From Octopus sinensis (Eukaryota), in NCBI RefSeq assembly GCF_006345805.1, contig NW_021835835.1, positions 1 to 38,046 on the forward strand: a stretch of 38,046 nt of DNA, in the 5' to 3' direction. Of this stretch, positions 9,939 through 33,754 are shown one piece after another; position 1 is the stretch's first letter, and the number at the start of each line of letters is the position of its first letter. The notes below the pieces were generated by a model. It was given only the letters and a program-made list of their open reading frames with translations, was not told where the DNA came from and made no database searches. The position numbers and the translations under genes are program-made.

Positions 9939-10260
9939 CTCTTTCTAAGTCGCCATTTTGTTTATAGGATAGCGAGAGTATAAGACTGTAGAAAAATTCT
10001 GTAGTCATACAGTTTAATGCTGAAATATCATTGAGGGTTTGGTGCCAGAGTAAGTATATAGATACTGTACTGAGGAACGGTTCAGTCAGAGAGAAACTCC
10101 TCTACTCAGTTGGTCGATCTGCTAGAAATAAAAGCTAAACTACATTAAAATCATGCCTTAATAATCAAGAATATATTGAACAGTCTACAATCTGAATGGT
10201 ACAGAATACACACACACATGTACACTCGCTTACATACGCATACACACACGTACATATACC

Positions 10261-10596
10261 TATTTATTTACTACCCGCAAGGGGCTAAACACAGAGAGGA
10301 CAAACAAGGACAGACAAACGGATTAAGTCGATTATATTGACTCCAGTACGTAACTGGTACTTATTTAATCGACCCCGAAAGGATGAAAGGCAAAGTCGAC
10401 CTCGGCGGAATTTGTACTCAGAACGTAGCAGCAGACGAAACACCGCTAAGCATTTCGCCCGGCGTGCTAACGTTACTGCCAGTTCACCGCCTTCGAAAAA
10501 TCGACCTCGACGGAATTTGAGCTCAGAATATAAAGGCAGACGAAATACAGATAAACATTTCGTCTGGCGTGCTAACGTTACTGCTAGCTTGCCGCC
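10261..10596 (-). mobile_element. tRNA-derived SINE family B (Nin/Deu-like core): one full copy (10261-10491) plus a second 5' head (10501-10596)
   Basis: Reverse complement of the copy at 13272-13503. Core GCCTTTCATCCTTTCGGGGTCGAT(A/T)AA..AAGTACC resembles the Nin/Deu SINE domain. Confidence 0.9.
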
Positions 10597-10940
10597 TTTC
10601 ACACACGTACATATAACACCTGTAGGGAACATTGGCTGATAAAGTAAGATCATAGGTACATTTTCTCTTCTATGTAAGTCAAGCAACTCAACTACTAAAT
10701 TTAAAAGGCTCATTAAAAAATCCAAACTTTAAGAAATTTATAATCGTTTAAGGAATGTCCAAAAATAATATTACCATATTTCTAATTTTAAAAAAAATTA
10801 CAGATATTCCCCACCTCTACATTTCTGTGTTGTCTTTACACTTGTGTGGAAGTAGAACACCCCTATTTGGTTGGCTCCTTATGGACTGTGCCACAATATA
10901 ACTGGACATGCGCAGAGAGTCGGTGAACTGTGTAAAGCCG

Positions 10941-12785
10941 GAAGGGTGTTGGTCGTAGTTTCTTTGACGTGAGTTCGAATTGTTACACACTATTATTGTT
11001 TACACCATGTTATATGTTTGTTGCAGTTCTCGCCGCGCGGGTGAATCAAGATTCATTGAATTGACTAAATTGTTGAATTGTTAAATTGCTGCATTTTTGT
11101 TGCTGCGTTCTGCCTGTTTTTGAAAATTGCTTATTCCCCATTTATGGGTGAAGTGGTGAAAAGAGGAGAAATGGAACGTGTCGCAAGTTATACATCCGCA
11201 ACTACACAAGGTATTACGACCAACACCCTTGAAGTTCGCGAGATAAAAATAGAGACAAAGGAATGGAAAAAAGGAAACAAATTGTTACAATAGGAAGGGG
11301 CCAGTTTAAAGCTGACCCCATGAGAAGAAGTGACGAAGAATGTTGCAAGAAAGACGTTTGTGTACAGGACGTTATCAACCGCTACCAAGAAAATAGAGAT
11401 TGCTCCAATAGGGGCAATAGAGGAATGTCTAGGTTACGTGAGAGGATTAACCACCTTCTATACACGTGGAAGAAAATACGGCACAGTGGAGGTCAGGTTC
11501 TCCAGTGAGGAGGACGTTATTAACCATTCCACTGAGCCAGTAAGGACACAAGAGTGGGTGCTGCTGCCGATGTACTATGGCAAACATGTTTGCAGAGTGA
11601 GATTCGGCAGAGTGCCCCCAAGATCGAAGTGGCATGGCTGGTGGCAGCAGTCATGCATGGAATGGAGGAAGATTCAAGGATTCTGAAGATAACCAGAACG
11701 AAGAAAATTAATTGGTGGGGCTACGGCCTTGAAATGATAATTCAAGTTGGGTTAAAAGACCTACATGGAATTGTAGAAGAGATTCTTCTCCCAGAAGACA
11801 TTACACTAAGAGTGGTGGTGGAGGGAAGACCTCCAGCATGTTTTCTATGTAAACAAAAAAGGACATATGAGAGCAAAGTGCCCTCAGCGAGAAAGTAAAG
11901 TAGAGAAACAACAATGCGAAGAGCAGCCCGCCGAAGAGGAGAGGTTGGAAAAAAAGAGAAGACTTTTATTGTTGTAAATAAGAGAAAGAGAAAAGAGCGG
12001 GTGAGCTCTCCAACAGAGGACCAAAAACGAAAGAAGGAAGTAGAGGAGAAAATAGAGGAGGTACAGAGGAATTGGTTAGCTACAGCAGCAGAAGTATTGC
12101 AACATAGAGTGGAAGATATAATCGCGGGCGATTATGATTACAGACGGAAGAACCAAGGGAAACGAATAGCCCGGACAGCCCAGGTCTGGAGCGTAAACAA
12201 GTAAATACTAATAAAAAAAAGTAACATATGTGAAAAGTACCGCAATAGAGTAGAAAATAACGAAATTCAAAGGTGCCATAAGGATTAAATTACCAGCTGA
12301 ACGTTACTCGGAACACATAAAGGGAATGGTGATTGACAAGGAAAGGTATAAAAGGCTGAAAGAACTATTTGTAGATGAAGTCAGCCCTTTGGGGGAAGAA
12401 ATTGAATTTGAAGAACTACTAAAAGTAGTTACATACAATGAGTTAAAAGCTCTAATGAATGGTAATATAGGAGTACTGTAAAAGAGAAAAAAATAGACTT
12501 TTTAACAAAGGAGAAAAAGAAGAGGAAAAAAAGGAAATAGACTTAAAAAAAACTGGGCAAAAAAGATGCAAAAAGGAAAAGAGAAAACTTTCATAACTTG
12601 TATAAATTAACAGTTAAATGGAACTGCTTGAGAGGTGGGGTTCAATGCAGCCATTTCGTTTTCATCGATTTCATTATACATTTTTTTTTTCATTTCTATT
12701 CGTTTTTGTCTCCGCCGTGGTGTTCTGTCTGTCATTGTGCTGTGCGCTCCATGTTATGGCCTGCGTGGCAAATAAAGAAAAGAGG
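10941..12785 (+). mobile_element. ORF1-only non-autonomous L1/Tx1-derived retroelement (HAL1-like)
   Basis: Frameshifted ORF1 homologous to ORF1 at 28343, followed by a ~300-bp UTR ending ggcctgcgtggcaaataaagaaaa like the LINE 3' end; no ORF2. The 5' boundary is tentative, from an 11/13 direct repeat at 10928-10940 and 12786-12798. Confidence 0.7.
11144..12481 (+). pseudogene. LINE ORF1 (gag-like, CCHC zinc knuckle), frameshifted
   Basis: RKTFVYRTLSTATKKIEIAPIGAIEECL..GRKYGTVEVRF..LLPMYYGK..WLVAAV..VVVEGRPPACFLCKQK/GHMRAKCP..EHIKGMVIDKERYKRLKELF aligns with KKTIIYKVINKKTRRTENAPQEKIEKCL..GNKFGTVQVRF..MIPVYLNK..WLVSAI..IVVEGRRPRCYLCGSETHLKKTC..DHIKILHISKSLHHTLKGIF. Confidence 0.85.
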
Positions 12786-13271
12786 CTGTGTGAAGTCGAG
12801 AGTTGAGTATCATCAAATGAAATTACAAGTATTATGTCTCTTGAGAACGATTTCCGAGGAAGTTACTTCTTATCCCGTCCTATCGTACGCCAAACGTGCG
12901 ATACACCAACACTACGCTACATTTCCTACACATATTTGAGTAACGTTATTATTAGAATGATTACAAATATTATAAATTTCACAAGAAGAGACTCAGTAGT
13001 CGTTTGCTCAGAAGAACGACTTGTTCCTTAATCCGACACGCAGCACCTGCGATTTTAAAGAAATTTTTATTACTTGTTTTAAAATTACATTCCCTTTTTA
13101 TATATAGGTTTTATACACTGTTTTAATAGTAATATTACTTATTGGTTGATCATCACTCTCCCTCCCGTTGGGTAGATACTCAGGGTATAAATTTGCCATA
13201 AAAATTGTCCATAGTGAATTGTACCCCCCAAAATGGACAGGAAAATGTAAAGTGACGAGTAAGAAGCGAGA

Positions 13272-13688
13272 AGGCGGCGAGCTGGCAGAGTCGTTAGCAC
13301 GCCGGGCGAAATGCTTAGCGGTATTTCGTCTGCTGCTACGTTCTGAGTTCAAATTCCGCTGAGGTCGACTTTGCCTTTCATCCTTTCGGGGTTTATAAAT
13401 TAAGTACCAGTTACGCACTGGGGTCGATGTAATCGACTTAATCCGTTTGTCTGTCCTTGTTTGTCCCCTCTGTGTTTAGCCTCTTGTGGATAGTAAAGAA
13501 ATAGGTATTTCGTCTGTCGCTACGTTCTGAGTTCAAATTCCACCGAGGTCGACTTTGCCTTTCATCCTTTCGGGGTCGATAAATTAAGTACCAATTACGC
13601 ACTGGGGTCGATGTAATCGACTTAAACCGTTTGTCTGTCCTTGTTTGTCCCCTCTGTGTTTAGCCCCTTGTGGGCAATAAAGAAATAA
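13272..13688 (+). mobile_element. SINE family B dimer (one head plus two 184-bp bodies) with 15-bp TSD
   Basis: TSD gagtaagaagcgaga at 13257-13271 and 13689-13703; gtatttcgtctg at 13321 and 13505; A-box-like TGGCAGAGTCGTT and B box GAGTTCAAATTCC. Confidence 0.95.
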
Positions 13689-14994
13689 GAGTAAGAAGCG
13701 AGATTGAAGCAAAACAAAAACCGATACCTATTTCAAGCACGAGCGTATCTTTTTGTTACATGCTGTAGAAGGTGCGTTTGTCCGTCGGGTCGGAAAACAT
13801 AGATATATATATATTAACTAAGCTAATATCAGATGTGTATTTACGCAACATTTGGACAACAGCATATTTTTCTTGTCAGTAAATAAACGACAGAAATTAC
13901 GAGACATTACACAACAGATGAAGGAGACGTTATGACAAGAGCGAAGCGTCGGTGTAAAGGCAATACAGGAATCGTCTAACTTTCATTACGTTATCGATTC
14001 AGTGGCTCTTTAGATTGTCAGTGACGGGTGATGGGCATTGGACAATGATGAATAATTGGGAACGAAATGAGGGAGAAATGTGAACAGAGAAAAATTATCG
14101 ACAAGCTGTTTGGTTTATTAAACACATCACTTGTCACCTTCACTGATATTGCTGTTTCTGTAATTATTATGGTTGCTGGTGTTAGTGCTGTTGGTATTGC
14201 CATATAGCGTTGTTGCTGCTGTTGTCGTTCTTGTTGTTGTTGTTATTGTCGTTGTTAACACTGATGTTGATAATGCTGATGGTTTTTGATGGAAGTGTTT
14301 TGTATAATATTTGTTCGTTCACTTTGTTTGTTTGTTTGTGTGTAGTTATAACGGGGGTGTATGCGTGACTGCAAGGAAGAGAAGAGAAGAGAAGCGAAGA
14401 AGAAAAAATAAAAAAGCCCTTCCCATTTGCACCTTGATTATCTGGCCGTGAATAATAAAGACCGCAGAGATTTGGAACATCCAAGCAATTCAGATGGAGC
14501 AGGAGGTGTGTCCTAAGCAACAGTCTGGAAGAAAAGGCATGATCAGCACTTTGCTATCTGTGAACAAATCTAGCCACAATGGAGACAATCAAAGAGATTT
14601 AGAGGCGAATGGGAAGGTGGGTGGTGATTGATGGTGGAGCCGGGGCGTGACGAGAGGGGACTCGAAAATAAAAGATAAAGAAGAGAAGCGAAAATTAAAG
14701 AAGGAGAAGAAGAAGAAGAAGCAGGCGGTGGGAGAAGGGATAAGGATAAGGATTGGGGAGAGTGGGGTCGGAGAGGAGGCGATAGAAAGAGAGGAGATGG
14801 AAATGAGATTAGAAGGAACGATGGAAAAAAGATGGTGGTGGTAACGGTGGAAGTAGGGAAGTATGGGAATGAATAATAAGAATTATAATAACGGGAAAAA
14901 GCCAAAGGAAGAGGAGAGAAACTGCAAAGAATAAAGAGAGGAAACATGTAAAAGAACAATTAAAAAATATGAACAATATAAAAGTGGGATCAGG

Positions 14995-15145
14995 ATGATG
15001 ATGATGATGATCTTCATCATCATCATCATCATCACCATCATCACCATCACTACGACCACCACCGCCATAATAATAATAATAATAATAATGATAATATTAA
15101 TAATATTAATAATATTAATAATAATAATAATGATGATGATGATGA
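14995..15145. repeat. (GAT)n/(CAT)n/(AAT)n trinucleotide field
   Basis: Direct reading. Confidence 0.9.
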
Positions 15146-15164
15146 TCATAATATTAATATTGGG

Positions 15165-15557
15165 TTCAAATGTTTCCACAAGGGCAGCAATTTTAGGGGG
15201 AGGGGATGAGACTATTACATGGACCGCAGTATTTGACTGGTAATAAATTTATCGATCCTGAAAGGCTGATTGGGAAAGTCGACCTCGGTTGAATTTGAAC
15301 TCAGAACTTTGCAACGGCCGAAATACCTATTTCTTTACTGCCTACAAGGGGCTAAATACAGAAAGGACAAACAAGGACAGACAACGGATTAAGTCGATTA
15401 CATCGACCCCAGTGCGTAACTGGTATTTATTTAATCGACTCCGAAAGGATGAAAGGCAAAGTTGACCTCGGCGGAATTTGAACTCAGAACGTAACGGCAG
15501 ACGAAATACGGCTACGAATTTCGCCCGGCGTGCTAACGCTTCTGCCAGCTCGCTACC
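15165..15557 (-). mobile_element. SINE family B dimer; the terminal unit has the alternative tail
   Basis: Head at ~15505-15557; junction gaaatacctatttc at 15320-15333; diverged left unit ends (minus strand) cccctcccctaaaattgctgcccttgtgg. Confidence 0.85.
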
Positions 15558-15611
15558 TTTATAATGATGACGATGCTGCTGCTGATGATGATAATAATAA
15601 TTTATGATTCA

Positions 15612-16092
15612 GTGTGACCCGTGAGATAGAGAATAAGAAGCTGGACATAGTCTTAGTTGAGAAGGAAAATAAACGATGCTGGATCATAGATATAGCATGC
15701 CCAGGTGATAACAAGGTATGCGATAAGGAAGAAAGAAAAGTCAATGGACATGAGAGATTAGCTTGGGAAGTTATGCAGTGGTGGTCGATGAAAAAGGTAG
15801 CAGTAGTACCAATAATTGTCGGAGCCCTGGGTACAGTGAGCAAGAATCTCGAGAATACGTGGAAGAAATAGGAGCTGCAATAAGAGTGGAGCACTTGCAG
15901 AAAACAGCACTGCTTGGAACGGTTGAATACTCCGGAAATGAAACGATGAAAAAAGAAGGGTATACAAAGAATACAATCGAAAGGAAAAGACAGACACGCA
16001 GTATACAAAGGTTTTTAAAAAGAGTGGAGAGATGGTAGAGATGTAGCCGTTGTAATACAGGACGATCTCTAGGGATAATCGGAGAATCCCAA
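15612..16092 (+). mobile_element. 3' fragment of RLE-type non-LTR retrotransposon (R4/Dong-like)
   Basis: KKLDIVLVEKENKRCWIIDIACPGD..KEERK..LAWEV..W..VVPIIVGALG..LQKTALLGT matches the PD..D..K restriction-like endonuclease C-terminus; flanked by (GAT/AAT)n. Confidence 0.85.
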
Positions 16093-16101
16093 ATAATAAT
16101 G

Positions 16102-16132
<31 letters not shown>

Positions 16133-16139
16133 TATTATA

Positions 16140-16606
16140 AAAGATCAGACAAAAAGGATATGTTTATTAATTGACATGAGTATTCCCTGTGATCACAATA
16201 TAGCGGCGAAAGAATTTGACAAGATTAGTAAATATAAAGACCTGCTAATAGAAATTGAAAAAATGTGGCATCTCAAGGCGACTACAGTACCAGTGATTGT
16301 AGGATCTCTAGGAATGATAAAAAAAGGTACTGAAACCTATTTGGAAATGATTCCAGGCTTACCATCCCTACAGGAAGTGCAAAAAATCGTATTAACTGGA
16401 ACGGCTCATGTACTGAGAAGAGCACTATCGCTGTGAAAATAACATCCATCCATAAATTTATTTATTTATTAATTTTTAAATACATATTTTATCTGTGAAT
16501 TTGCGCGTGTAATCTGGGAATGCATACAATGCCCCTCTCTGCCCTAGGTGTATGGAAAAACACTCGGCGAGAAACGGAAGAAAATTTGAAGAAAGAAGGA
16601 AAAAAC
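16140..16606 (+). mobile_element. 3' fragment of a second RLE-type (R4/Dong-like) family
   Basis: CLLIDMSIPCDHNIAAKEFDKISKYKDLLIEIEKMWHLKATTVPVIVGSLG..VQKIVLTGTAHVLRRALSL* (stop 16436) plus 3' UTR; (AAT)n on both sides. Confidence 0.9.
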
Positions 16607-16788
<182 letters not shown>

Positions 16789-16791
16789 CTA

Positions 16792-17131
16792 CTATTTTAT
16801 TGGCCACAAGGGCTCACGTAAAATTACATTAATAGACATGCAACAACATGACAAAAACAGGACGATACAATGGTTTTCGCGTGTACACAATGTAATAATA
16901 AAAATTTAACAAATCAAAACTCCCAATAGGGAAGGTGCTTTAAGATCCCCACAAAAAACCCCTACAAAAGCCACGGATGCCTGAACAACAGAGCAAGAAC
17001 CCTTCTGTTTTTTTTTACAGGTGTACGCTCAAATTTGTAATTTCACACTGGCCATTTTTCCAACATTCGCCCACCTTTCAACAAACTTGCTACAAGGCAA
17101 TACTTCCCTCTCCACGCTCAGCTTGTATTTC
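16792..17131 (-). mobile_element. 3' fragment of a Tx1-like LINE related to 28235-33754
   Basis: Minus strand KYKLSVEREVLPCSKFVERWANVGKMASV parallels KRKVRVERQ..SSECFKKRWVNVARMARM; 3' end gagcccttgtggccaataaaa. Confidence 0.8.
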
Positions 17132-17336
17132 AAGAGAATAATTTCAGGGTCTTGTCACAAGGTCACCAGTTTTGGGGGCAATGATAAGGGAATTTCATCG
17201 ATCTCAGTTCTGGCCTGCAATCTTATTTTATTGAGGTATTGAAATCGTGTGAACACCTGAGGCTGCCGGGTGAAATACGAAACGTTACTCACATATATTA
17301 TGTCGGGAATAAGACCTTTTCTGAGACAAGACAATG

Positions 17337-17376
<40 letters not shown>

Positions 17377-17378
<2 letters not shown>

Positions 17379-17662
17379 TGACAGGTTAGCTTGGGAAGTT
17401 AAGCAGTTGTGGTCGACAAAAAAGGTGGTAGTATTACCAATAATTGTCGGAACCCTGGGAACAGTGAGTGAAAATCTTGAGAAGTACATGGAACAAATAG
17501 GGGCTGTAATAAGGGTGGGGCACTTGCAGAACACAACACTGCTTAGAAGCGGCCGAATACTCTGGAAGGTGCTAAAAAAATAAGGGATGTTACCTTAGTT
17601 CACTGGTAGTGAATAGCTGACACCGTAGTACATCTTCAGCATTAGAAGCTGTGCAAAGGCAG
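17377..17662 (+). mobile_element. 3' fragment of RLE-type LINE, same family as 15612
   Basis: YDRLAWEVKQLWSTKKVVVLPIIVGTLGTVSENLEKYMEQIGAVIRVGHLQNTTLLRSGRILWKVLKK* (stop 17583); (TAA)n on the left, (GAT/AAC/AAT)n on the right. Confidence 0.88.
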
Positions 17663-17718
17663 TGATGATGATAACAACAACAACAATAATAATAACAATG
17701 ATAATAATAATAATAATG

Positions 17719-17754
<36 letters not shown>

Positions 17755-19249
17755 TCAAATTTTGGCGCAAGGCCAGCAATTTTGGTGGAGTGGAGAAGTC
17801 GATTACATCGACCCCCAAAGTACAACTGGTACCTATTTAATCGACTTCGAAAGGCTGAAATGCAAAATCGACTTTGGCGAAATTTAAACTCAGATCGTAC
17901 GTAGAGACGGAAGAAATACCTATTTATTTACTACCCACAAGGGGCTAAACACAGACAGGACAAACAAGGACAGACAAACGGATTAAGTCGATTATATCGA
18001 CCCCAGTGCGTAACTGGTACTTATTTAATCGACCCCGAAAAGATGAAAGGCAAAGTCGACCTCGGCGGAATTTGAACTCAGAACGTAACGGCAGGCGAAA
18101 TACTTATTTCTTTACAACCCACAAGGGGCTAAACACAGACAGGACAAACAAGGACAGATAAACGGATTAAGTCGATTACATCGAACCCAGTGCGTAACTG
18201 GTACTTAATTTATCGACCCCGAAAGGATGAAAGGCAAAGTCAACCTCGGCGGAATTTGAACTCAGAACGTAACGGCAGGCGAAATACTTATTTCTTTACA
18301 ACCCACAAGGGGCTAAACACAGACAGGACAAACAAGGACAGATAAACGGATTAAGTCGATTACATCGAACCCAGTGCGTAACTGGTACTTAATTTATCGA
18401 CCCCGAAGGATGAAAGGCAAAGTCACCTCGGCGGAATTTGAACTCAGAACGTAACGGCAGGCGAAATACTTATTTCTTTACAACCCACAAGGGGCTAAAC
18501 ACAGACAGGACAAACAAGGACAGACAAACGGATTAAGTCGATTATATCGACCCCAGTGCGTAACTGGTACTTATTTAATCGACCCCGAAAAGATGAAAGG
18601 CAAAGTCGACCTCGGCGGAATTTGAACTCAGAACGTACGGCAGGCGAAATACTTATTTCTTTACAACCCACAAGGGGCTAAACACAGACAGGACAACAAG
18701 GACAGATAACGGATTAAGTCGATTACATCGAACCCAGTGCGTAACTGGTACTTAATTTATCGACCCCGAAAGGATGAAAGGCAAAGTCAACCTCGGCGGA
18801 ATTTGAACTCAGAACGTAACGGCAGGCGAAATACTTATTTCTTTACAACCCACAGGGGCTAAACACAGACAGGACAAACAAGGACAGATAAACGGATTAA
18901 GTCGATTACATCGAACCCAGTGCGTAACTGGTACTTAATTTATCGACCCCGAAAGGATGAAAGGCAAAGTCAACCTCGGCGGAATTTGAACTCAGAACGT
19001 AACGGCAGGCGAAATACTTATTTCTTTACAACCCACAAGGGGCTAAACACAGACAGGACAAACAAGGACAGATAAACGGATTAAGTCGATTACATCGAAC
19101 CCAGTGCGTAACTGGTACTTAATTTATCGACCCCGAAAGGATGAAAGGCAAAGTCAACCTCGGCGGAATTTGAACTCAGAACGTAACGACAAGCGAAATA
19201 CCGTTAAGCATTTCGCCCGGCGTGCTAACGTTTCTGCCAGCTCTCCGCC
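17755..19249 (-). mobile_element. SINE family B multimer: one head, seven ~184-bp bodies and a diverged terminal unit
   Basis: ggggctaaacacag at 17941, 18125, 18309, 18491, 18674, 18855 and 19039; single head at ~19195-19249. Confidence 0.95.
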
Positions 19250-19255
19250 TTGATA

Positions 19256-19290
<35 letters not shown>

Positions 19291-19892
19291 ATTTACCTGC
19301 CGAACGACCTGCACAAATGAATTTGTTTATAGTGATCACTGGTTTGTGGCGCACAGTACCTCATTCCTTCCATCAAATCGATGTTGTCTGAACATTGTAA
19401 TAATAATGATGATGATGCTAATGATGATGATATTAATTCTAATTCTATTAATAATAATGAAGCCGCAGCCTCCCTATTATGCACAAGAGATGTAGAAAGC
19501 GAAGAATAACAAATATACAAGAAAGACAGACAAGGGCAAAAAAAAAAGAGAGACAGAACGATGTGAGAAATGAAGAAGTAATTTAAGCAACCAAGTAAAT
19601 GAAGATACTGCGGCAAGAATAAGGGATAAGATGAAGCAACACCAGAACCAGCATCACACACATCATCGATGCTAACCAGGCAGCGTTTATTTCTCTTTTG
19701 CACGTCGTCACTTTTTAAAAAGAGTTTCCTCAGTCCTACGACTCATACGGCCGGTTACCTAGACTCCATTTGGCATGAGTGACCAAGATTACAACATTCA
19801 CCCTGAAAGGGTTGGGGTTTCGTTACTGGAATGAAGGCCAACAATTTTGAGTGGCTGGTCAAGTCAGTTACAACGACCCCATTACCTGGATA

Positions 19893-20289
19893 CTCTTTTA
19901 TTTGTTTCAGTCATTTGACTGTGGCCATGCTGGAGCACCGCCTTTAGTCGTGGAAATCGACCCCAGAACTTATTCTTTGTAAGCCTAGTACTTATTCTAT
20001 CGGTCCCTTTTACCGAACCGCTAAGTTATGGGGACGCAAACACACCAATGTCGGTTTTCAAGCAATGGCGGGGGGACAAACACAGATACACAAACATATA
20101 CACACACACATATATTTACATATATACGACAGGCTTCTTTCAGTTTCCGTCCACCAAATCCACTCACAAGATTTTGGTCGGCCCGAGGCTATAATAAGAA
20201 GACACTTGCTCAAGGTGCCACACAGTGGATCTGAAACGGGAACCATGTGGCTGCTAAGCAAGCTACTTACCACACAGCCATTCCTGCGC
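19893..20289 (-). mobile_element. Full-length family-A SINE (tRNA head, CORE-like block, internal microsatellite, 3' tail)
   Basis: Minus strand TGGCTGTGTGGTAAG (A box) ... GGCACCTTGAGCAAGTGTCTT (resembles the MIR/CORE ccttgggcaagt motif) ... (TA/TG)n ... CAGTCAAATGACTGAAAC. Confidence 0.9.
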
Positions 20290-20613
20290 TATTGTCGAAG
20301 ACATTTCACCAAGATGTCGCGCAGTGGGGCTGAACCCAAAACGACGTGTTTACAAACAAGCTTCTTAACCACTAATGATATGTGCGCCTTATTTTTCTTC
20401 TTTCCACTTATGAGCCTGGCATGCAACAACCGAGTCATTGCCTACGACTTATGAGCAAGACAACATAACTGATTAAACACTTTCACTTTCTACACAGAAG
20501 TTGCTTTATACATTTTACAATCCAATATTAAAATACATTACAAAAATTCACTTTTTTCTCAGCAAATAATTAACGTGTATGTGATGTGATTTGTAAAAAG
20601 GAATTTTGGTTTA

Positions 20614-21204
20614 TATTCTTTTCTACTCTAGGCACAAGGCCCTATATTTTGGGGGAGCAATCGATTAGATCGACCACAGTACGCAACTTGTACTTGATTT
20701 ATGGAACCCTAAGAATGAAAGGCAAAGTCGACCACGGCGGAATTTGACGAAATACCGCTAACCATTTCGCCCGGTGTGCTAACGTTTCTTATTTCTTTAC
20801 TATCCACAAGGGGCTAAACATGGAAGGGACAAACAAGGATAGACAAAGGGATTAAGTTGATTACATCGACACCAGTACAGAACTGGTACTTAATTTATCG
20901 ACCCCGAAAGGATGAAAGGCAAAGTCGACCTCGGCGGAATTTGAACTCAGAACGTAGCCGCAGACGAAATACCTATTTCTTTACTACCCTCAAGGGGCTC
21001 AACACAGAGGGGACAAACAAGGACAGACAAACGGTTTAAGTAGATTACATGGACCCCAGTGCGTAACTGGTACTTGATTTATCGACCCCGAAAGGATGAA
21101 AGGCAAAGTCGACCTCGGTGGAATTTGAACTCAGAACGTAACGGCAGACGAAATACCGCTAAGCATTTCGTCCAGCGTGCCAACGTTTCTGCCAGCTCAC
21201 CGCC
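20614..21204 (-). mobile_element. SINE family B dimer (20790-21204) abutting an older partial copy (20614-20789)
   Basis: Junction gaaatacctatttc at 20966-20979; head ends at 21204. Confidence 0.88.
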
Positions 21205-21374
21205 TTGGTTTATATTATTGGTGATATCAAAGTTCAAAATAGGACTGGCATATGCGTGATATAATCGTGTGTGTGTGCGCGTGCCTTTACATACCTGCAT
21301 GCAAATATATACATAGATACATATATATATATGTATATTATTATTAATATATATATATATATATATATATTAAT

Positions 21375-21410
<36 letters not shown>

Positions 21411-21426
21411 ATAATAATATATATAT

Positions 21427-21668
21427 GGCGCAATGCTTAGGGCAGCGGACTCGCGGTCGTAGGATTGCGGTTTCGATTCCCTGACCGGGTGTTGTGTGTG
21501 TTTATTGAGCGAAAACACCTAAAAGCTCCACGAGGCTCCCTGCTGTACTCTTTCACCACTCTTTCTCTCACTCTTTCTTCTGTTGGCCTGCTCGCTTAGC
21601 GAACGCATTGTGACCAGCGATGTGTAACAACATCTGATAGCCTGATCGGTCACGGTGATCACGGTGAT
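21427..21668 (+). mobile_element. tRNA-derived SINE family C, internally deleted
   Basis: ggcgcaatg..ttagggcagcggactcgcggtcgtaggattgcggtttcgattccc head; gagcgaaaacacctaa and ctttctctcactcttt are shared with 36032-36337. Confidence 0.82.
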
Positions 21669-27130: not shown

Positions 27131-27180
<50 letters not shown>

Positions 27181-27353
27181 GTTTCTTTATTGGCCACACA
27201 GGGCTGCACACAGGTGGGACAAGTTACAAGGTAGAGCTTTTCTTTTGGGGGATGAAAAAAACAAAAAACAAAAGAAACAAAAAAAAGGGGGTGGCGTAGG
27301 TTTTCGATCAAGAGGGATCGTAAAAGGGAAGTAAAGAACAAAAAAAAAATAAA

Positions 27354-28235: not shown

Positions 28236-28342
28236 AAGCCGCCTACCAAAGCAACACCGCCAACACCAACACCACTACTACGACGTCAAATGCTACATCT
28301 AAGCCTTCTGCTGCTAATACCGCCAACACCAACACCACTACC

Positions 28343-29910
28343 ATGACTTCAATTAACACTGCCACAATTAACACTTCTACTGCCAAATTCAAAACGAATT
28401 TTGCGGACGTAACAAAACAAAAAAGAACAATTGTAACATTCACCACACAAGAGATAAACCGCACAAAGGCACTCTTCTCCAAAGAAGGAGACAAATTGCC
28501 CCTTCACATTCCACAACACATCGTGGAAAACACACACAAAAAAACAATAATTTATAAAGTAATAAACAAAAAAACAAGAAGAACAGAAAATGCACCGCAG
28601 GAAAAAATCGAAAAATGCCTTCGTCCTGTATGGGACTCCAAGGAATATATCAGTTGGGGAAACAAATTTGGTACAGTCCAAGTACGTTTCCTCAACGAAA
28701 GTTTAGCAAAACGTTTTTCCATATTGGAGCTGCATTCGGACGACTTGGTAATGATACCAGTCTATTTAAACAAAAGGGTCACGAAAGTCCAAATAAAAAA
28801 CATACCACTTGAAGTCGAAACACAATGGTTGGTCTCTGCCATCTGCTTTGAAATGACAGAGACAATGTCAGAGACAAACATCCTTGAAATCGCGGTTCTA
28901 GGAGAGAAAGACTATGTGGACAAATCAATCGAATTCCTGCTTCAATTGGATGAAGCAGCAAGAGAGAAGATACCCACCGCTATAGAACTGCCAGGAGGCT
29001 ACAAACTCTATATAGTGGTAGAGGGCAGGCGACCACGCTGCTATTTGTGTGGAAGCGAAACACACTTGAAAAAGACGTGCCCAACCACTGCACACCAAGA
29101 GCAACAACAACAACCACTACCACAACCAAAGCACTCCGGAAAAAAAGCTCTACTACCCACACCACCATCAACATAGAAGACGACAAGAGAAGCACACCAA
29201 GCTAATCCGTCATCAACCAAAAACCACTCAACACCTGAAAAAATACCAACACCACCAAACAGCCAAACCCCAAAGAACAGAAAAACAAAGAAAACACACA
29301 CAAACTGATCCCCCATCCCTTATACCGCACTCAACACACACAAACACTCAACAACCAACAACAACGAAAACAACAACACAACCACTTACACAGACATACA
29401 TAGAAGCCCACAACATACCCCTACCCCCTACTGATTCCTCAGAAATTTCGTCGGAAGACGAAACCAGTGAGGAGTGGCAAATAGCTACAAAAAGAAGGAA
29501 AATAAAGAGCAGAAACAACCAAACCAAATGCAAACACGAACAAAGCAGGGGGAAATACATCTCCCGAAGACATTTCAAAACCCAACGCAAACAACAGCCA
29601 CACCAACACCACAAAAATATATACAGCAAACATGCTCACAGCTATAGACACCAAAAACACAAATTTGATGGAATACATCCAATCAAAAACATACATAACA
29701 GAAGATGACATAAAAACAAACAATCACCCATACACAGCACCACCAGACCACATCAAAATATTACACATCTCCAAAAGTCTGCACCACACACTCAAAGGCA
29801 TTTTCCCCAGCGCGGTTGGTAAATGCCAAAAATATCTCACAAAGAAACTGTACTGGGATCTCCTCGAGGACAAACCAAAGGAGGAGAAAGCAAAAACTTT
29901 CGAGCAGTAA
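28343..29910 (+). pseudogene. LINE ORF1 (zinc-knuckle nucleic-acid-binding protein), frameshifted after ~29170
   Basis: NFADVTK N-terminal motif; CYLCGSETHLKKTC (CX2CX4HX4C); Pro/Thr/Lys-rich linker; C-terminal block 29632-29910. True start uncertain because the frame is open back to 28235. Confidence 0.85.
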
Positions 29911-29954
29911 GTAACCCTCTGTTCCTTTCACTTGTATTCTAATTCATTAGGACT

Positions 29955-32900
29955 ATGATCAAGATTGGTTGTGTAAATGCGCGTGGCTTGGGGTGCCCTT
30001 GGAAACAAGGGTACCTCTTAAATGACATACAGTCACACGGGTTAGAAATCATAGCCATAAGTGAGACCAGACTCCACAATCCGCGGGCCCTAAAGACCAT
30101 GTTTGGCGGACAGTTCAACATTTATTTTCACCCCTGTCTGCCGAGAATGGGCGGTAGTGGCACCGCGGTACTTTTTCACAAGAGTCTGGATCTCAAAGTA
30201 AGGACAATATTCGTAGAGCCGGAGGGTAGACTGGTCGTCCTGGATGTCGACGGCAGCAATGGGTGCGCTTTTCGACTCGTATCAGTCTACGCACCGCCCT
30301 TAACAGGTCGGGCGGATTTCTTTCAACGTCTAGAAGTATTCTTGGGAACGTCTCGTCCTTTACTCTTAGTGGGGGATTGGAATGCTACCTTGGACACGCA
30401 TGTAGACTACGTGGGTAGAGATAGGAATAGACGGGGATGCAAATGCCTCAGAGACCTGCTCAGACGCTTTCAACTGTCTGACAGGTTCCGACTAGACCAC
30501 CCGAATGCGCCAACGTGGACATGGAGCAACCGCATCGGGTCGTCGAGATCGTATCTAGATAGGATACTGTGTAGGACAGTAGACAGAGATAGCATAGGAT
30601 GTCCACAATTCCACATAGTCAGCTACACGGATCACAAACTTGTGACATGTACGCTAGACTTAGGTAAGACACTTAGGCAGGGTCCCGGATACTGGAAACT
30701 AACGCGTCTTTCCCATCGAGACAGGTTTTCAGAGACCGGATTAGCACACTAGTAAAGAGGGCTTTGACGGGAGCCATCATCAACAACAAATGGTGGTTTG
30801 CCCTCAAGAGAGCAGTAAAAGCAGAAGCGATTAGGTACAGCAAAGCACTAGCCATAGATAGAAATAGAGTAGAGGGTGAGCTAGTTAAGAAGCTAGAAGA
30901 GGCAATTAGAAGCGGCATCGCATCCGACGTTTTGGCGGTGAGGTTGGCCCTCGACCAACACTTCAACGCCAAACACGAAGGATGCGCTGTCAGAGCTAGG
31001 ATGCGTGCTCTAAGGAACGAAGGTGTTGGAGCCGCGAGAGAGGCCCGGGTGGCAGAGGCGCAACAGGGCAACAAAGCCACCATTCGGTCCCTGGTAGATG
31101 AACAGAGGCGCGAATTGCTCGAGCCAAGTAAAATGTGTGAGGCCTTTCAGCAGCATTTTGCCCGACTGTTCGGAACGAGTGGAGGGCAAGAACGTAGGGT
31201 GGACTTCAGTGCCTACCTACATAGCCTACCACGACTCTCGACAAGAAAGGCAGGGTGCTGCGAAGGTGCCATCACGGCGGCGGAAGTGCAGGAAGCGATG
31301 GCAGAATGCTCGGGGACAAATCACCGGGTTTGGATGGTCTACCCTACGAGCTTTACAATTGTATGCCAGACTTGTTTGGAGATCTCTTAGCGGCGGTGTA
31401 CTGCAACTGGCAGCAAAACGGGAGCATTCCTGGTTTTGTGAGCCGAGGAGCGTAACACTGCTGAAGAAAGATCTAAACAAGGGAAATGTAATAGATAACT
31501 TTAGGCCCATCACTCTGCTTAATGCAGACTTGAAAATTTTGGCCAAGGTGCTAGCCAAGAGGTTGGCGCTTGTCATCGAGAAACTGGTCGACAAGGCGAA
31601 CATGCGCCGTGCCAGGCGCGGACCATCCATGACAACCTCCACCTGATGCGCTACATCATAGACAGGGTAGTTAACGAACCTGGCATGGGTGGGGCGCTGA
31701 TCAATTTGGATCAATCGAAAGCTTTCGATAGGGTGGACCATCGATACTTGGAGGCGGTCCTCGGAGCGGCTGGCTTCGGTCCCGTCTTCCGCGGCTGGAT
31801 AGCCGCTTTGTACAGAGGCATCTGTTCGGTAATTCGCGTGAATGGACATCTATCGAGACCCTTCGACATCGCACGTTCGGTCCGTCAGGGATGCCCCCTC
31901 TCGTCGCTTCTATACGTATTGACTCTCGAGCCATTATTGCGGAAGCTGGCAACCTTGAGAGGCATCCCGCGAGAACTGGGATGCGGGACGAGCGTGTCTG
32001 CATACGCAGACGACGTCACCGTCATAGTGTCTAGCCACGAGCACATCGAGCTGGTCGGCGAGACACTGAAAAACTACGAAGCGGTGACAGGAGCGAAAAT
32101 CAACCGGGAAAAGTCAGTGGGCTTGCGACTAGGCACCTGGAGAAGCAAGCCCATGCCGTCCACCAGCGCCTCCGTCGTGGGACGCTGGACCGACGGCCCG
32201 GTTGAGTTGCTCGGGGTCTGGTTTGGTCCGGACCTCCAAGTGGAGAAGAACTGGAACGAGATAACGAGTAGGGTGGTCACTCTCGCCCGGCAATGGGCCG
32301 AGAGGAAACTGTCCCTAAAAGGTCGGGCGGAGGTGGCGAACACGTACATCACGTCCGTCATCTACTACCGCCTGACCGTCGTACCTTGTCCCGACCCTAC
32401 TATCACCAAACTACAACGCATTCTCTTTCGCTTCTTGTGGAAAGGATGCGTCCCGATGGTCAGGCGATCCATTTGCTGTCAACACCCGTTAAAAGGAGGG
32501 CTGGGCATGCCGTGGTTGATGATGCGCAGACACGCGCTGAGACTGCGACATCTCTGGCTTTATGTAGACGACGGTGAACAGGTGTGGTCGCCGTTTGTGA
32601 GGCACGCTTTCAGCAGCTCGTCTCCATGACCGAACTGCAGTCGTGGATCAAAAAGAGGCCGAGGAAGGGCGAATGGCACCGCGAGTGTTGCGTTGCTCTC
32701 AAGCAACTCTGCCGTCCTGGGTCGACCTTGAGTGACTTCAACACAACCAAAGCATTCTATAGGGGTTTAGTGGAGGGGAGGTACGACGTCGAGCTCGGGG
32801 CGAACCTGGACGTCGACGAGGAGTACCTGACCCACCTGTTCAGGACGACTTTCGGGCCAGGGACCATGGACAACTTCAGAGATCCCTGGCCTGGCAGTGC

Positions 32901-33389
32901 TAACGAGAAGCGCTACCGTTCGGGATAAGCTCTACAGACACGGCTCGAGAAAGAAACACGGGGCCGACCTGCCCGAGATGCGGTCAGAGCGACGAAACCG
33001 TTCTGCACGCACTCGTGCAGTGTCCAACAATTTCCGACACTGTGGGCATGTCGAACAACTGCTGTCACGTGTGGGACGAGTCGGTTTATCAGCTGAGTCT
33101 ATCGTCAATATTGTCACGGCTCCTTCCTTCAAACGGGAAGGAAGAGCTATTTTCATCATCCTTGTGGCTATGGCGAAAGAATGTATCTGGTGGACGCGTC
33201 TGAAAGGATTGGAGACAAACACTTTCCTCTCTGGTCAATCTCTCATCAACTTCTTCAAGTACCACTTGAAAAGGAAAGTGAGAGTAGAGAGGCAAGGTTT
33301 TGTCTAGCGAATGTTTTAAAAAAAGATGGGTGAATGTAGCAAGAATGGCACGTATGAATGACGAAGCCACCTTGAGCATGATCCTATGA
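29955..33389 (+). pseudogene. LINE ORF2: APE endonuclease plus reverse transcriptase, split by roughly ten frameshifts
   Basis: CVNARGL, ISETRL, SVYAP, VGDWN, SYLDR, TDHK (APE); KSPGLDG, NFRPITLLNADLKILAK, LDQSKAFDRVDH, VRQGCPLS, AYADD, GGLG (RT); CPRCG..ETVLHALVQC across frameshifts. Confidence 0.95.
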
Positions 33390-33754
33390 ACCCAGAATTG
33401 AAACAGAGAGTTGCTTATTCGCCAAAAAAAAAAAAAAGAAATATAACATGTGACTCCATTGACCGAGGTTACCGTGGTCTTTTCCGTAGGCTTTTCTTTC
33501 CACGGGTAACCTCACCTGTCCTCCCCTTTACACTTCATATTGACATTTCTGTGATAACGATCCCTATTGATCATTTTTTTTTTTTCCTCTCCCCTTTTTT
33601 TTTAAGCCCCCTTTGTTTTGTCCTCTTTCTTCTCTTACGATCCCTTTTGATCGAAAATCCCCTTCCTTTTTTTTTTTTTAAACCTTCAAAAGAAAAGCTC
33701 TACCTTGTAATTTGTTCTATCTGTGTGCAGCCCTGTGTGGCTAATAAAGAAACA

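Follow-up and report, generated by a model that had tools for sequence, protein, structure and literature searches.

Elements that share fixed target sites are described in crocodilians, where a Tx1-type LINE (Tx1-Mar) and a SINE (SINEU) occupy common fixed sites in a Mariner DNA transposon (PMC4494074). In the account given there, tandem SINEU copies arise by sequential insertion with a target site duplication (TSD) sandwiched between them, and different Tx1 families are proposed for the different sites. The same source names other APE-type LINEs with sequence-specific targets, including Tx1L in Tx1D, Keno in U2, and Kibi and Koshi in microsatellites. For S. broughtonii, a blood clam, SINE arrays are described as TSD1-(SINE)n-TSD1, with inner units truncated at both ends and unequal recombination as the suggested cause (PMC11481361), and squamate SINE-derived satellites (sSats) are tandem repeats built from SINE parts (PMC10702118). 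Pairing of the RNA 3' end with the target is described for RTE, R1Bm and R2Ol (PMC6007223), and annealing-type joining of the 5' end has also been described (PMC4245944).

Here we analyze a 38,046-nucleotide stretch of Octopus sinensis DNA (contig NW_021835835.1), hereafter the window, in which a SINE forms multimers with recurrent joints. The named octopus SINEs are OK, OR1 and OR2, reportedly described by Ohshima and Okada in 1994. Full-text literature searches, with repeat libraries and subscription papers outside their scope, returned no published account of such a system in this animal group. We consider it likely that the joint is a landing site at which new SINEs nest in older copies, probably through the enzyme of a LINE lineage and probably with the aid of the end of their own RNA.

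Results

A SINE dimer within one target site duplication

The dimer lies on the forward strand of the window between two identical copies of a 15-bp TSD (13257-13271 and 13689-13703). A sequence-only reading of this DNA had stated that a single TSD encloses the whole dimer, and our analysis confirms this, with one extra A before the right copy that has no counterpart in the upstream flank. The dimer opens with the SINE head (bases 1-48, 13272-13319), which has 2 differences from the family majority, and continues with two units, each covering bases 49-232 and belonging to the young family F1. Unit 1 (13320-13503) carries the T variant of the tail, and unit 2 (13504-13687), likely the resident copy, carries the older C variant (divergence 0.053 for the C variant vs 0.039 for the T variant). 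We take the A box to lie in the head and the B box in the unit behind it, as assigned by eye against the box consensus. The joint between the tail of unit 1 and base 49 of unit 2 is contained in an 18-mer at 13495-13512 and coincides with the insertion site of a LINE, LINE-B. The tail itself (13438-13503, and again 13622-13687) is akin to the 3' ends of L1/Tx1-like LINEs and beats all shuffles for three LINE families, with scores of 62-77 vs shuffle maxima of 45-56 for LINE-A, LINE-B and the LINE at locus L038.

Within the dimer (13272-13687), the two 184-nt units differ at 12 positions and are unlike at bases 62 and 63. The TSD starts with GAG and comes after an A, which is near the AGAA preference of C-variant copies. 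In sequencing run X14, from another organism, one contig spans both flanks of the dimer with 87 letters between them, the length expected of the empty site. Runs X9 and X12 have 59 + 27 letters as insertions at this locus, in line with that length, and they also show SINE sequence here, for which a monomer and a dimer are alike possible. We lean towards an origin in which a C-variant monomer was present first and a T-variant copy then inserted into its base 49; one-step copying of a dimer formed that way at another locus is also a serious possibility.

Structure of the SINE and census of its joints

The SINE is a dispersed, TSD-flanked element of 232 nt with 98,609 exact tail ends. A tRNA-derived SINE is recognized by a head that is at least 60% tRNA-like, with A and B boxes. 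In this head, A- and B-like boxes are visible by eye, and none of the 9 tRNAs of this genome that were compared, a part of the tRNA set, aligns better than shuffles. ARAGORN found no tRNA in the window, and an Rfam scan of 13000-21500 gave no ribozyme or tRNA match at E ≤ 5, only microsatellite noise. The anticodon-arm position that had been assigned to the joint is left without support. The joint does lie at the head hairpin loop as had been claimed, on the 3' edge of that loop as predicted (36-nt fold, z = -3.1). The complementarity noted between the unit ends is present by inspection, but the junction region folds like shuffles (z = 0.36). Elsewhere, seven tRNA-Cys genes form a tandem cluster at L262, four of them spaced 156 bp.

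We surveyed 0.6 Mb of DNA flanking known joints, 30 loci selected by their tails, and 0.8 Mb sampled at even spacing and without bias. Junction and tail patterns guided the choice of loci L001-L100 and of the window, which are biased, and frequencies are taken from L101-L180 alone. In the genome (2.7 Gb), the exact 18-mer junction has 40,480 copies and its reversed control 0; such counts include re-copied joints and are not independent events. Among 80 tail ends in the 800 kb of unbiased DNA, 28 lead into base 49, 7 into base 16, 3 are indel variants and 42 lead into other DNA; by extrapolation, the genome would contain ~270,000 tail ends. The base-16 joint, which occurs in the window at 20789, has 3,436 exact copies genome-wide. 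A census of this kind, which the sequence-only reading had called for, thus bears out the base-49 joint as recurrent but not as the sole joint, and the claim that units always meet at the same junction has to be given up.

In the unbiased set, arrays that open with the young family consist of 1 unit in 35 cases, 2 units in 11, 3 in 4 and 4 in 3. Adjacent units of dimers are nearly as unlike as random pairs (0.091 vs 0.102), and arrays of at least five units are homogeneous (0.049 vs 0.101). The long arrays, homogeneous and with block patterns such as AAABAAB at 17921-19203, would fit duplication at the DNA level, and assembly artefacts may contribute to them. We also observed two near-identical four-unit SINE loci (L232 and L233) with the same flanks, ~0.9 Mb apart and in opposite orientation, which represent a segmental or assembly duplicate.

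Composite loci end in older SINE families

Four further SINE loci were read in the window, all on the reverse strand. At 10261-10597, an F1 monomer (10261-10492) lies behind an older 5' fragment (bases 1-101) with a TSD around both, and the GG at its 3' joint is not present upstream. What had been taken for a partial junction trace at 10256 is actually the start of a TSD at a non-SINE site. At 15160-15558, a head and an F1 unit continue through a base-49 joint into an older body and tail of family F2 (15160-15327). At 17752-19250, a head and seven F1 units of two types, in the order AAABAAB, are followed by a terminal F2 unit (17752-17920). At 20606-21205, a head and two F1 units with a base-49 joint lead through a base-16 joint to an F3-family copy (20618-20789), and a 12-bp TSD surrounds the whole. 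A fixed joint had been claimed for four loci: the exact 18-mer is present at 13495, 15319 (-) and 20965 (-), but the joint at 17920 has a tail with a one-base variant, and six inner joints of the array at 17796-19201 have A, not G, at base 49. An orthologue comparison at one of these loci (15160-16080) met repeat flanks and no bridging contig. No locus showed the old SINE by itself in another organism.

The terminal units at 15165 and 17755 had been noted as diverged; they are not copies of the same unit but members of an older family with another tail, and the F3 copy at 20618-20789 likewise belongs to an older family with a tail of its own. Four families share a common head and body and have unlike tails, with median divergences from the majority of 5% (F1), 11% (F3), 13% (F4) and 16% (F2); comparisons among families leave out 61 of 464 units whose tails are unclassified. 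In divergence, terminal F2, F3 and F4 units equal the solo copies of their own families (0.09-0.14 vs 0.11-0.16) and exceed the unit ahead of them (0.104 vs 0.070 for F3; 0.154 vs 0.056 for F2/F4). They are mutually unrelated, the closest pair being 0.096 apart. Of 32 F1-F1 arrays, 22 have an older last unit and 7 a younger one (p = 0.011, polymorphic columns removed).

At bases 57-72, F1 and old-family terminal units have 20 variants in common vs 10.6 expected, and beyond this range 18 vs 17.7. This excess, modest and partly on polymorphic sites, is the pattern that an inner TSD would give. At base-16 joints, sharing at 16-31 shows no excess (2 vs 1.2), and an excess is found at 32-66 instead. 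Composite heads show more divergence than monomer heads (284/2748 vs 238/3196), and head divergence follows the last unit weakly (p = 0.096). Outer TSDs have a divergence of 0.064 in F1+F3 composites, 0.054 in solo F1 copies and 0.096 in solo F3 copies, and are old in F1+F2/F4 composites (0.19, 5 loci). F1-F1 dimers have variants in common along the whole unit, and two pairs are just 0.024 apart. Because of the young outer TSDs of F1+F3 composites and this sharing along F1-F1 units, many composites appear to have been copied whole or duplicated.

A LINE inserted at the same base

The window contains a broken, near-full-length L1/Tx1-like LINE with APE and RT domains, LINE-A, inserted in (TCTA)n (28236-33754, +). 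Its 3' end resembles the F1 tail. Long open frames are preserved in many copies of its family, which targets (TATC)n. LINE-A was considered as the SINE partner and rejected: its copies end in (TATC)n, and the matches of LINE-A-type tails at base 49 and base 16 (4 and 1) are all SINE variants. With the same tail type and another target, LINE-A is likely not the partner. RTE, considered as a partner in view of PMC6007223, was also set aside, as the tail instead matched L1/Tx1-like LINEs. Other retroelement remains in the window include a 3' fragment of a LINE-A relative (27180-27300, -) and ORF1-like pieces akin to LINE-A ORF1, apparently with no ORF2 behind them (11324-12131, +). A high-copy repeat at 15600-16436 contains a frame (16056-16436) with no Pfam match, presumably the C-terminus of a retroelement protein by its likeness.

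A tblastn search of the sampled loci turned up LINE-B (L011:1-4407), whose RT is 59-65% identical to that of LINE-A. Both LINEs have ORF1 and an APE-RT ORF2 of the L1 group (PF03372, PF00078), and their endonuclease is closest to L1 ORF2 among solved structures. Protein-atlas matches are to generic RT, and both are target-specific, for (TATC)n and SINE base 49, respectively. We take both to be Tx1-like from motifs, structure and targeting.

The 3' end of LINE-B lies at SINE base 49 in all 30 best-hit loci (29 exactly, the remaining one with a small duplication), and genome-wide the same holds for 126 of 140 exact matches of the LINE-B tail. At 20 of the 30 loci, the 5' end was read as well, in 1.9-kb pieces. 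All 19 full-length copies read are preceded by SINE bases 1-64, and the 20th copy (L287), which is truncated, by bases 1-62. The two copies of this region are unlike mostly at bases 62-64, and the LINE-B TSD is therefore 13-16 bp long. Outer SINE TSDs surround LINE-B in 15 of 19 cases, of which two or three are possibly due to chance. These copies directly show that base 49 is a site-specific insertion point and that the head stays in place when LINE-B inserts. We note that at L306-L325 the 5' SINE copy before LINE-B always ends in CG at bases 63-64 and is unlike the 3' copy beyond what the age of the LINE allows. LINE-B RNA may start with SINE sequence.

LINE-B copies are 0.4% apart and F1 copies are 4-6% diverged, which does not indicate concurrent activity. 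LINE-B is therefore too young for most F1 joints, and an older relative is predicted as their maker. The closest match to the F1 tail (51/67) is in a decayed L1/Tx1-like LINE of another family (L038:9060-9160, +), with another repeat behind it, and its lineage is a candidate tail donor. A search for copies of this LINE tail returned itself alone. The 3' end of a further LINE, at L025, does not score above shuffles against the SINE tail, and the matches and loci read include no LINE with this tail type at base 16.

Target sites and the choice of base 49

F1 copies at unique sites have 44 TSDs with a mode of 15 bp. At 27 such sites of the T variant, the upstream copy, which predates the insertion, has G, G, T, A and T at its first five positions in 16, 18, 23, 24 and 19 cases, respectively. 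Among 104 non-SINE sequences following the tail, 28 start with GGTA (0.27 expected) and 14 with AGAA (0.72 expected), which are the motifs at SINE bases 49 and 16. The tail variant, located 12 bases inside the element, predicts which SINE base follows: T-variant tails lead into base 49 in 132 cases and base 16 in 3, and C-variant tails in 6 and 13 (p = 5e-12). At unique sites, GGTA follows 27 of 66 T-variant tails vs 0 of 37 C-variant tails. A few 3' joints (10256 and 13688 in the window, and L101+) carry bases of the motif that are missing upstream. A C before the TSD, which seemed enriched by eye, is present in 9 of 27 on counting.

Several other features of SINE insertions were observed. 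TSDs of F2, F3 and F4 copies (e.g., L043, L069 and 20606 in the window) begin with AATAT or TATT, the same as the ends of their own tails. At L109+ near 2087 and L034- 3533, we found an F3-type tail at base 16 and 5'-truncated copies starting from bases 13-21; base 16 may be a hot spot for further families. The first 16-20 bases of the head are briefly duplicated ahead of full-length copies at L088, L047 and L065, and the SINE copies at L054:4721-4992 (-), L072 and L220 have inverted 5' parts or head pieces in inverted orientation.

Base 49 separates SINE joints from LINE-B joints. Exact intact heads have C at this base in 20,305 cases and G in 27,955 (42% C), and two thirds of LINE-B joints have C (20 of 30, with G in the other 10), whereas G is found in 40,480 SINE joints and C in 432. 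At LINE-B, base 49 agrees with the target on either side in all 19 copies, follows the resident SINE subfamily and is independent of LINE distance (p = 0.6), which rules out an RNA tag at this position. The LINE-B nick therefore needs no G at base 49, since LINE-B is found at C49 targets. C49 copies are no younger (0.036 vs 0.039), and in 13 composites the first head has C49 and the joint G49. The G at SINE joints, despite C in heads and LINE joints, would point to RNA pairing. Together with the tail variant that predicts the follower, it would agree with an RNA that continues beyond the tail and base-pairs with the primer, as described for RTE, R1Bm and R2Ol (PMC6007223).

Discussion

The age of the terminal units, the GGTAT targets and LINE-B at the same base back one of the explanations offered by the sequence-only reading, namely insertion of new SINEs into older ones at a fixed site. 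We propose that such nested insertion would begin with an endonuclease nick between bases 48 and 49, with the other strand cut ~13-16 bases further on. In a second step, which we hold less firmly but still consider fairly probable, SINE RNA would continue beyond its tail, to GGUAU in the T variant or AGAAA in the C variant (base 16), and pair with the nicked primer. The cDNA would then end in bases 64 to 1, which match the resident head, and anneal there, for a net gain of one headless 184-nt unit. Neither a second head nor an inner TSD would then be seen, since the cDNA head would anneal to an identical resident head. Among 146, a single nested SINE (L061+, base 16) does have a duplicated head, which leaves this third step an inference. 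Read-through transcripts of composites would subsequently be copied again as a whole, and local DNA duplication would enlarge arrays of at least five units.

It is possible, though in our view doubtful, that endonuclease specificity alone is sufficient, with successive LINE families (GGTAT, AGAAA and TATC targets) moving successive SINE subfamilies. This would keep nested insertion and drop only the pairing of read-through RNA. The distinct targets of LINE-A and LINE-B, the greater age of the C variant compared with the T variant, and the target-derived base 49 at LINE-B are all in line with it. However, C49 is accepted by LINE-B and almost never found in SINE joints, the few 3' joints with motif bases missing upstream (10256, 13688 and L101+) are not expected from it, and base 16 yielded no LINE with this tail in the matches and loci read.

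We think it unlikely that most multimers are whole copies of many pre-formed composite sources, with reverse transcription starting at any tail and read-through microhomology giving the TSD starts. Whole copying would agree with the young outer TSDs of F1+F3 composites, the lack of an inner T4 terminator in head and unit, the recurring order of T unit, C unit and base-16 joint, and the absence of the entire dimer in X14. But the terminal units are mutually unrelated and as old as solo copies, the outer TSDs of F1+F2/F4 composites are old, and both the origin of the joint and the LINE at the same base would be left unexplained. Of the multimeric master proposed in the sequence-only reading, a single master is excluded, but re-copying of many composites likely contributes.

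Template jumping, in which the reverse transcriptase stops at the head hairpin and moves to the 3' end of another RNA held by GAAAUA/UAUUUC pairing, is very improbable. The position of the joint at the edge of the hairpin loop, the near-identity of some adjacent units (e.g., L065- and L227+) and the short head duplications at 5' ends would agree with it, but one event would give units of one age while the ages differ, the base-16 joint does not have this pairing, and GGTAT belongs to the DNA target at unique sites. Least probable is a 184-nt circular RNA formed by loop cleavage and ligation and copied repeatedly, as it could give headless units of fixed length and homogeneous long arrays but would have no head, although arrays start with one, and it is at odds with the unlike units of dimers, the AAABAAB-type blocks, the unit numbers in unbiased DNA, the unsupported anticodon position and the Rfam result for 13000-21500. 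Neither jumping nor a circle can yield terminal units of three older families, a second joint, TSDs starting with GGTAT, or a 5.4-kb LINE at the same base; a 184-nt circle may occur as a by-product.

Nested insertion at base 49 would have further implications. More tentatively, we suggest as a possible extension that a SINE with a Tx1-type tail, together with the enzyme of a LINE lineage that homes to SINE heads, forms a closed self-targeting loop, in which the read-through end inherited from the last landing site picks the next site. If true, SINE subfamilies would differ in where they aim (base 49 or 16), and proto-satellites would be seeded by the tens of thousands. Nested insertion would also provide a mechanism by which a dispersed SINE turns into tandem repeats. 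The LINE keeps strictly to a single nick site (90%) that its passenger uses loosely (roughly half of the young copies), and the contrast at base 49 makes the roles of endonuclease and RNA pairing in target choice directly testable. LINE-B, very young (0.4%) and with an exact target, is a candidate for studying site-specific APE enzymes.

Comparison with described systems places these features in context. Non-LTR retrozymes, in the descriptions drawn on here, similarly consist of tandem 150-400-nt units and offer the model for the proposed circle, but no hammerhead or other Rfam ribozyme match was found in the region scanned here, and the SINE has a putative Pol III-type head and a LINE-type tail. 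As in the accounts of 3' pairing and annealing, the RNA 3' end would correspond to the TSD start and the 5' end would be annealed, with a TSD of 15 bp; here, however, that RNA end would stem from read-through into a SINE rather than from a microsatellite tail. Long arrays here look like an early stage of what is described for squamate sSats, although tens of thousands of dispersed 2-4-mers are found here, with one joint in common with a LINE. The arrays described in S. broughtonii likewise have one TSD per array and inner units that are headless from a fixed place, but in the octopus the tails are complete, the last units belong to other families, and insertion takes place at the joint. LINE-A resembles Kibi and Koshi in its microsatellite target (TATC)n. 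In contrast to Tx1L, Keno, Kibi and Koshi as described, the target of LINE-B is a SINE with a related tail, so that the passenger would supply the landing sites and the loop would be closed. There is also a likeness to SINEU and Tx1-Mar, in which a LINE and a SINE also share fixed sites inside a mobile element and tandem SINEs are attributed to sequential insertion. Relative to that account, the SINE here is targeted in its own head, the units lack a head, and a possibly tRNA-type head is combined with a LINE-related tail. By this analogy, the octopus system appears to work like SINEU and Tx1-Mar, except that its target is the SINE itself.
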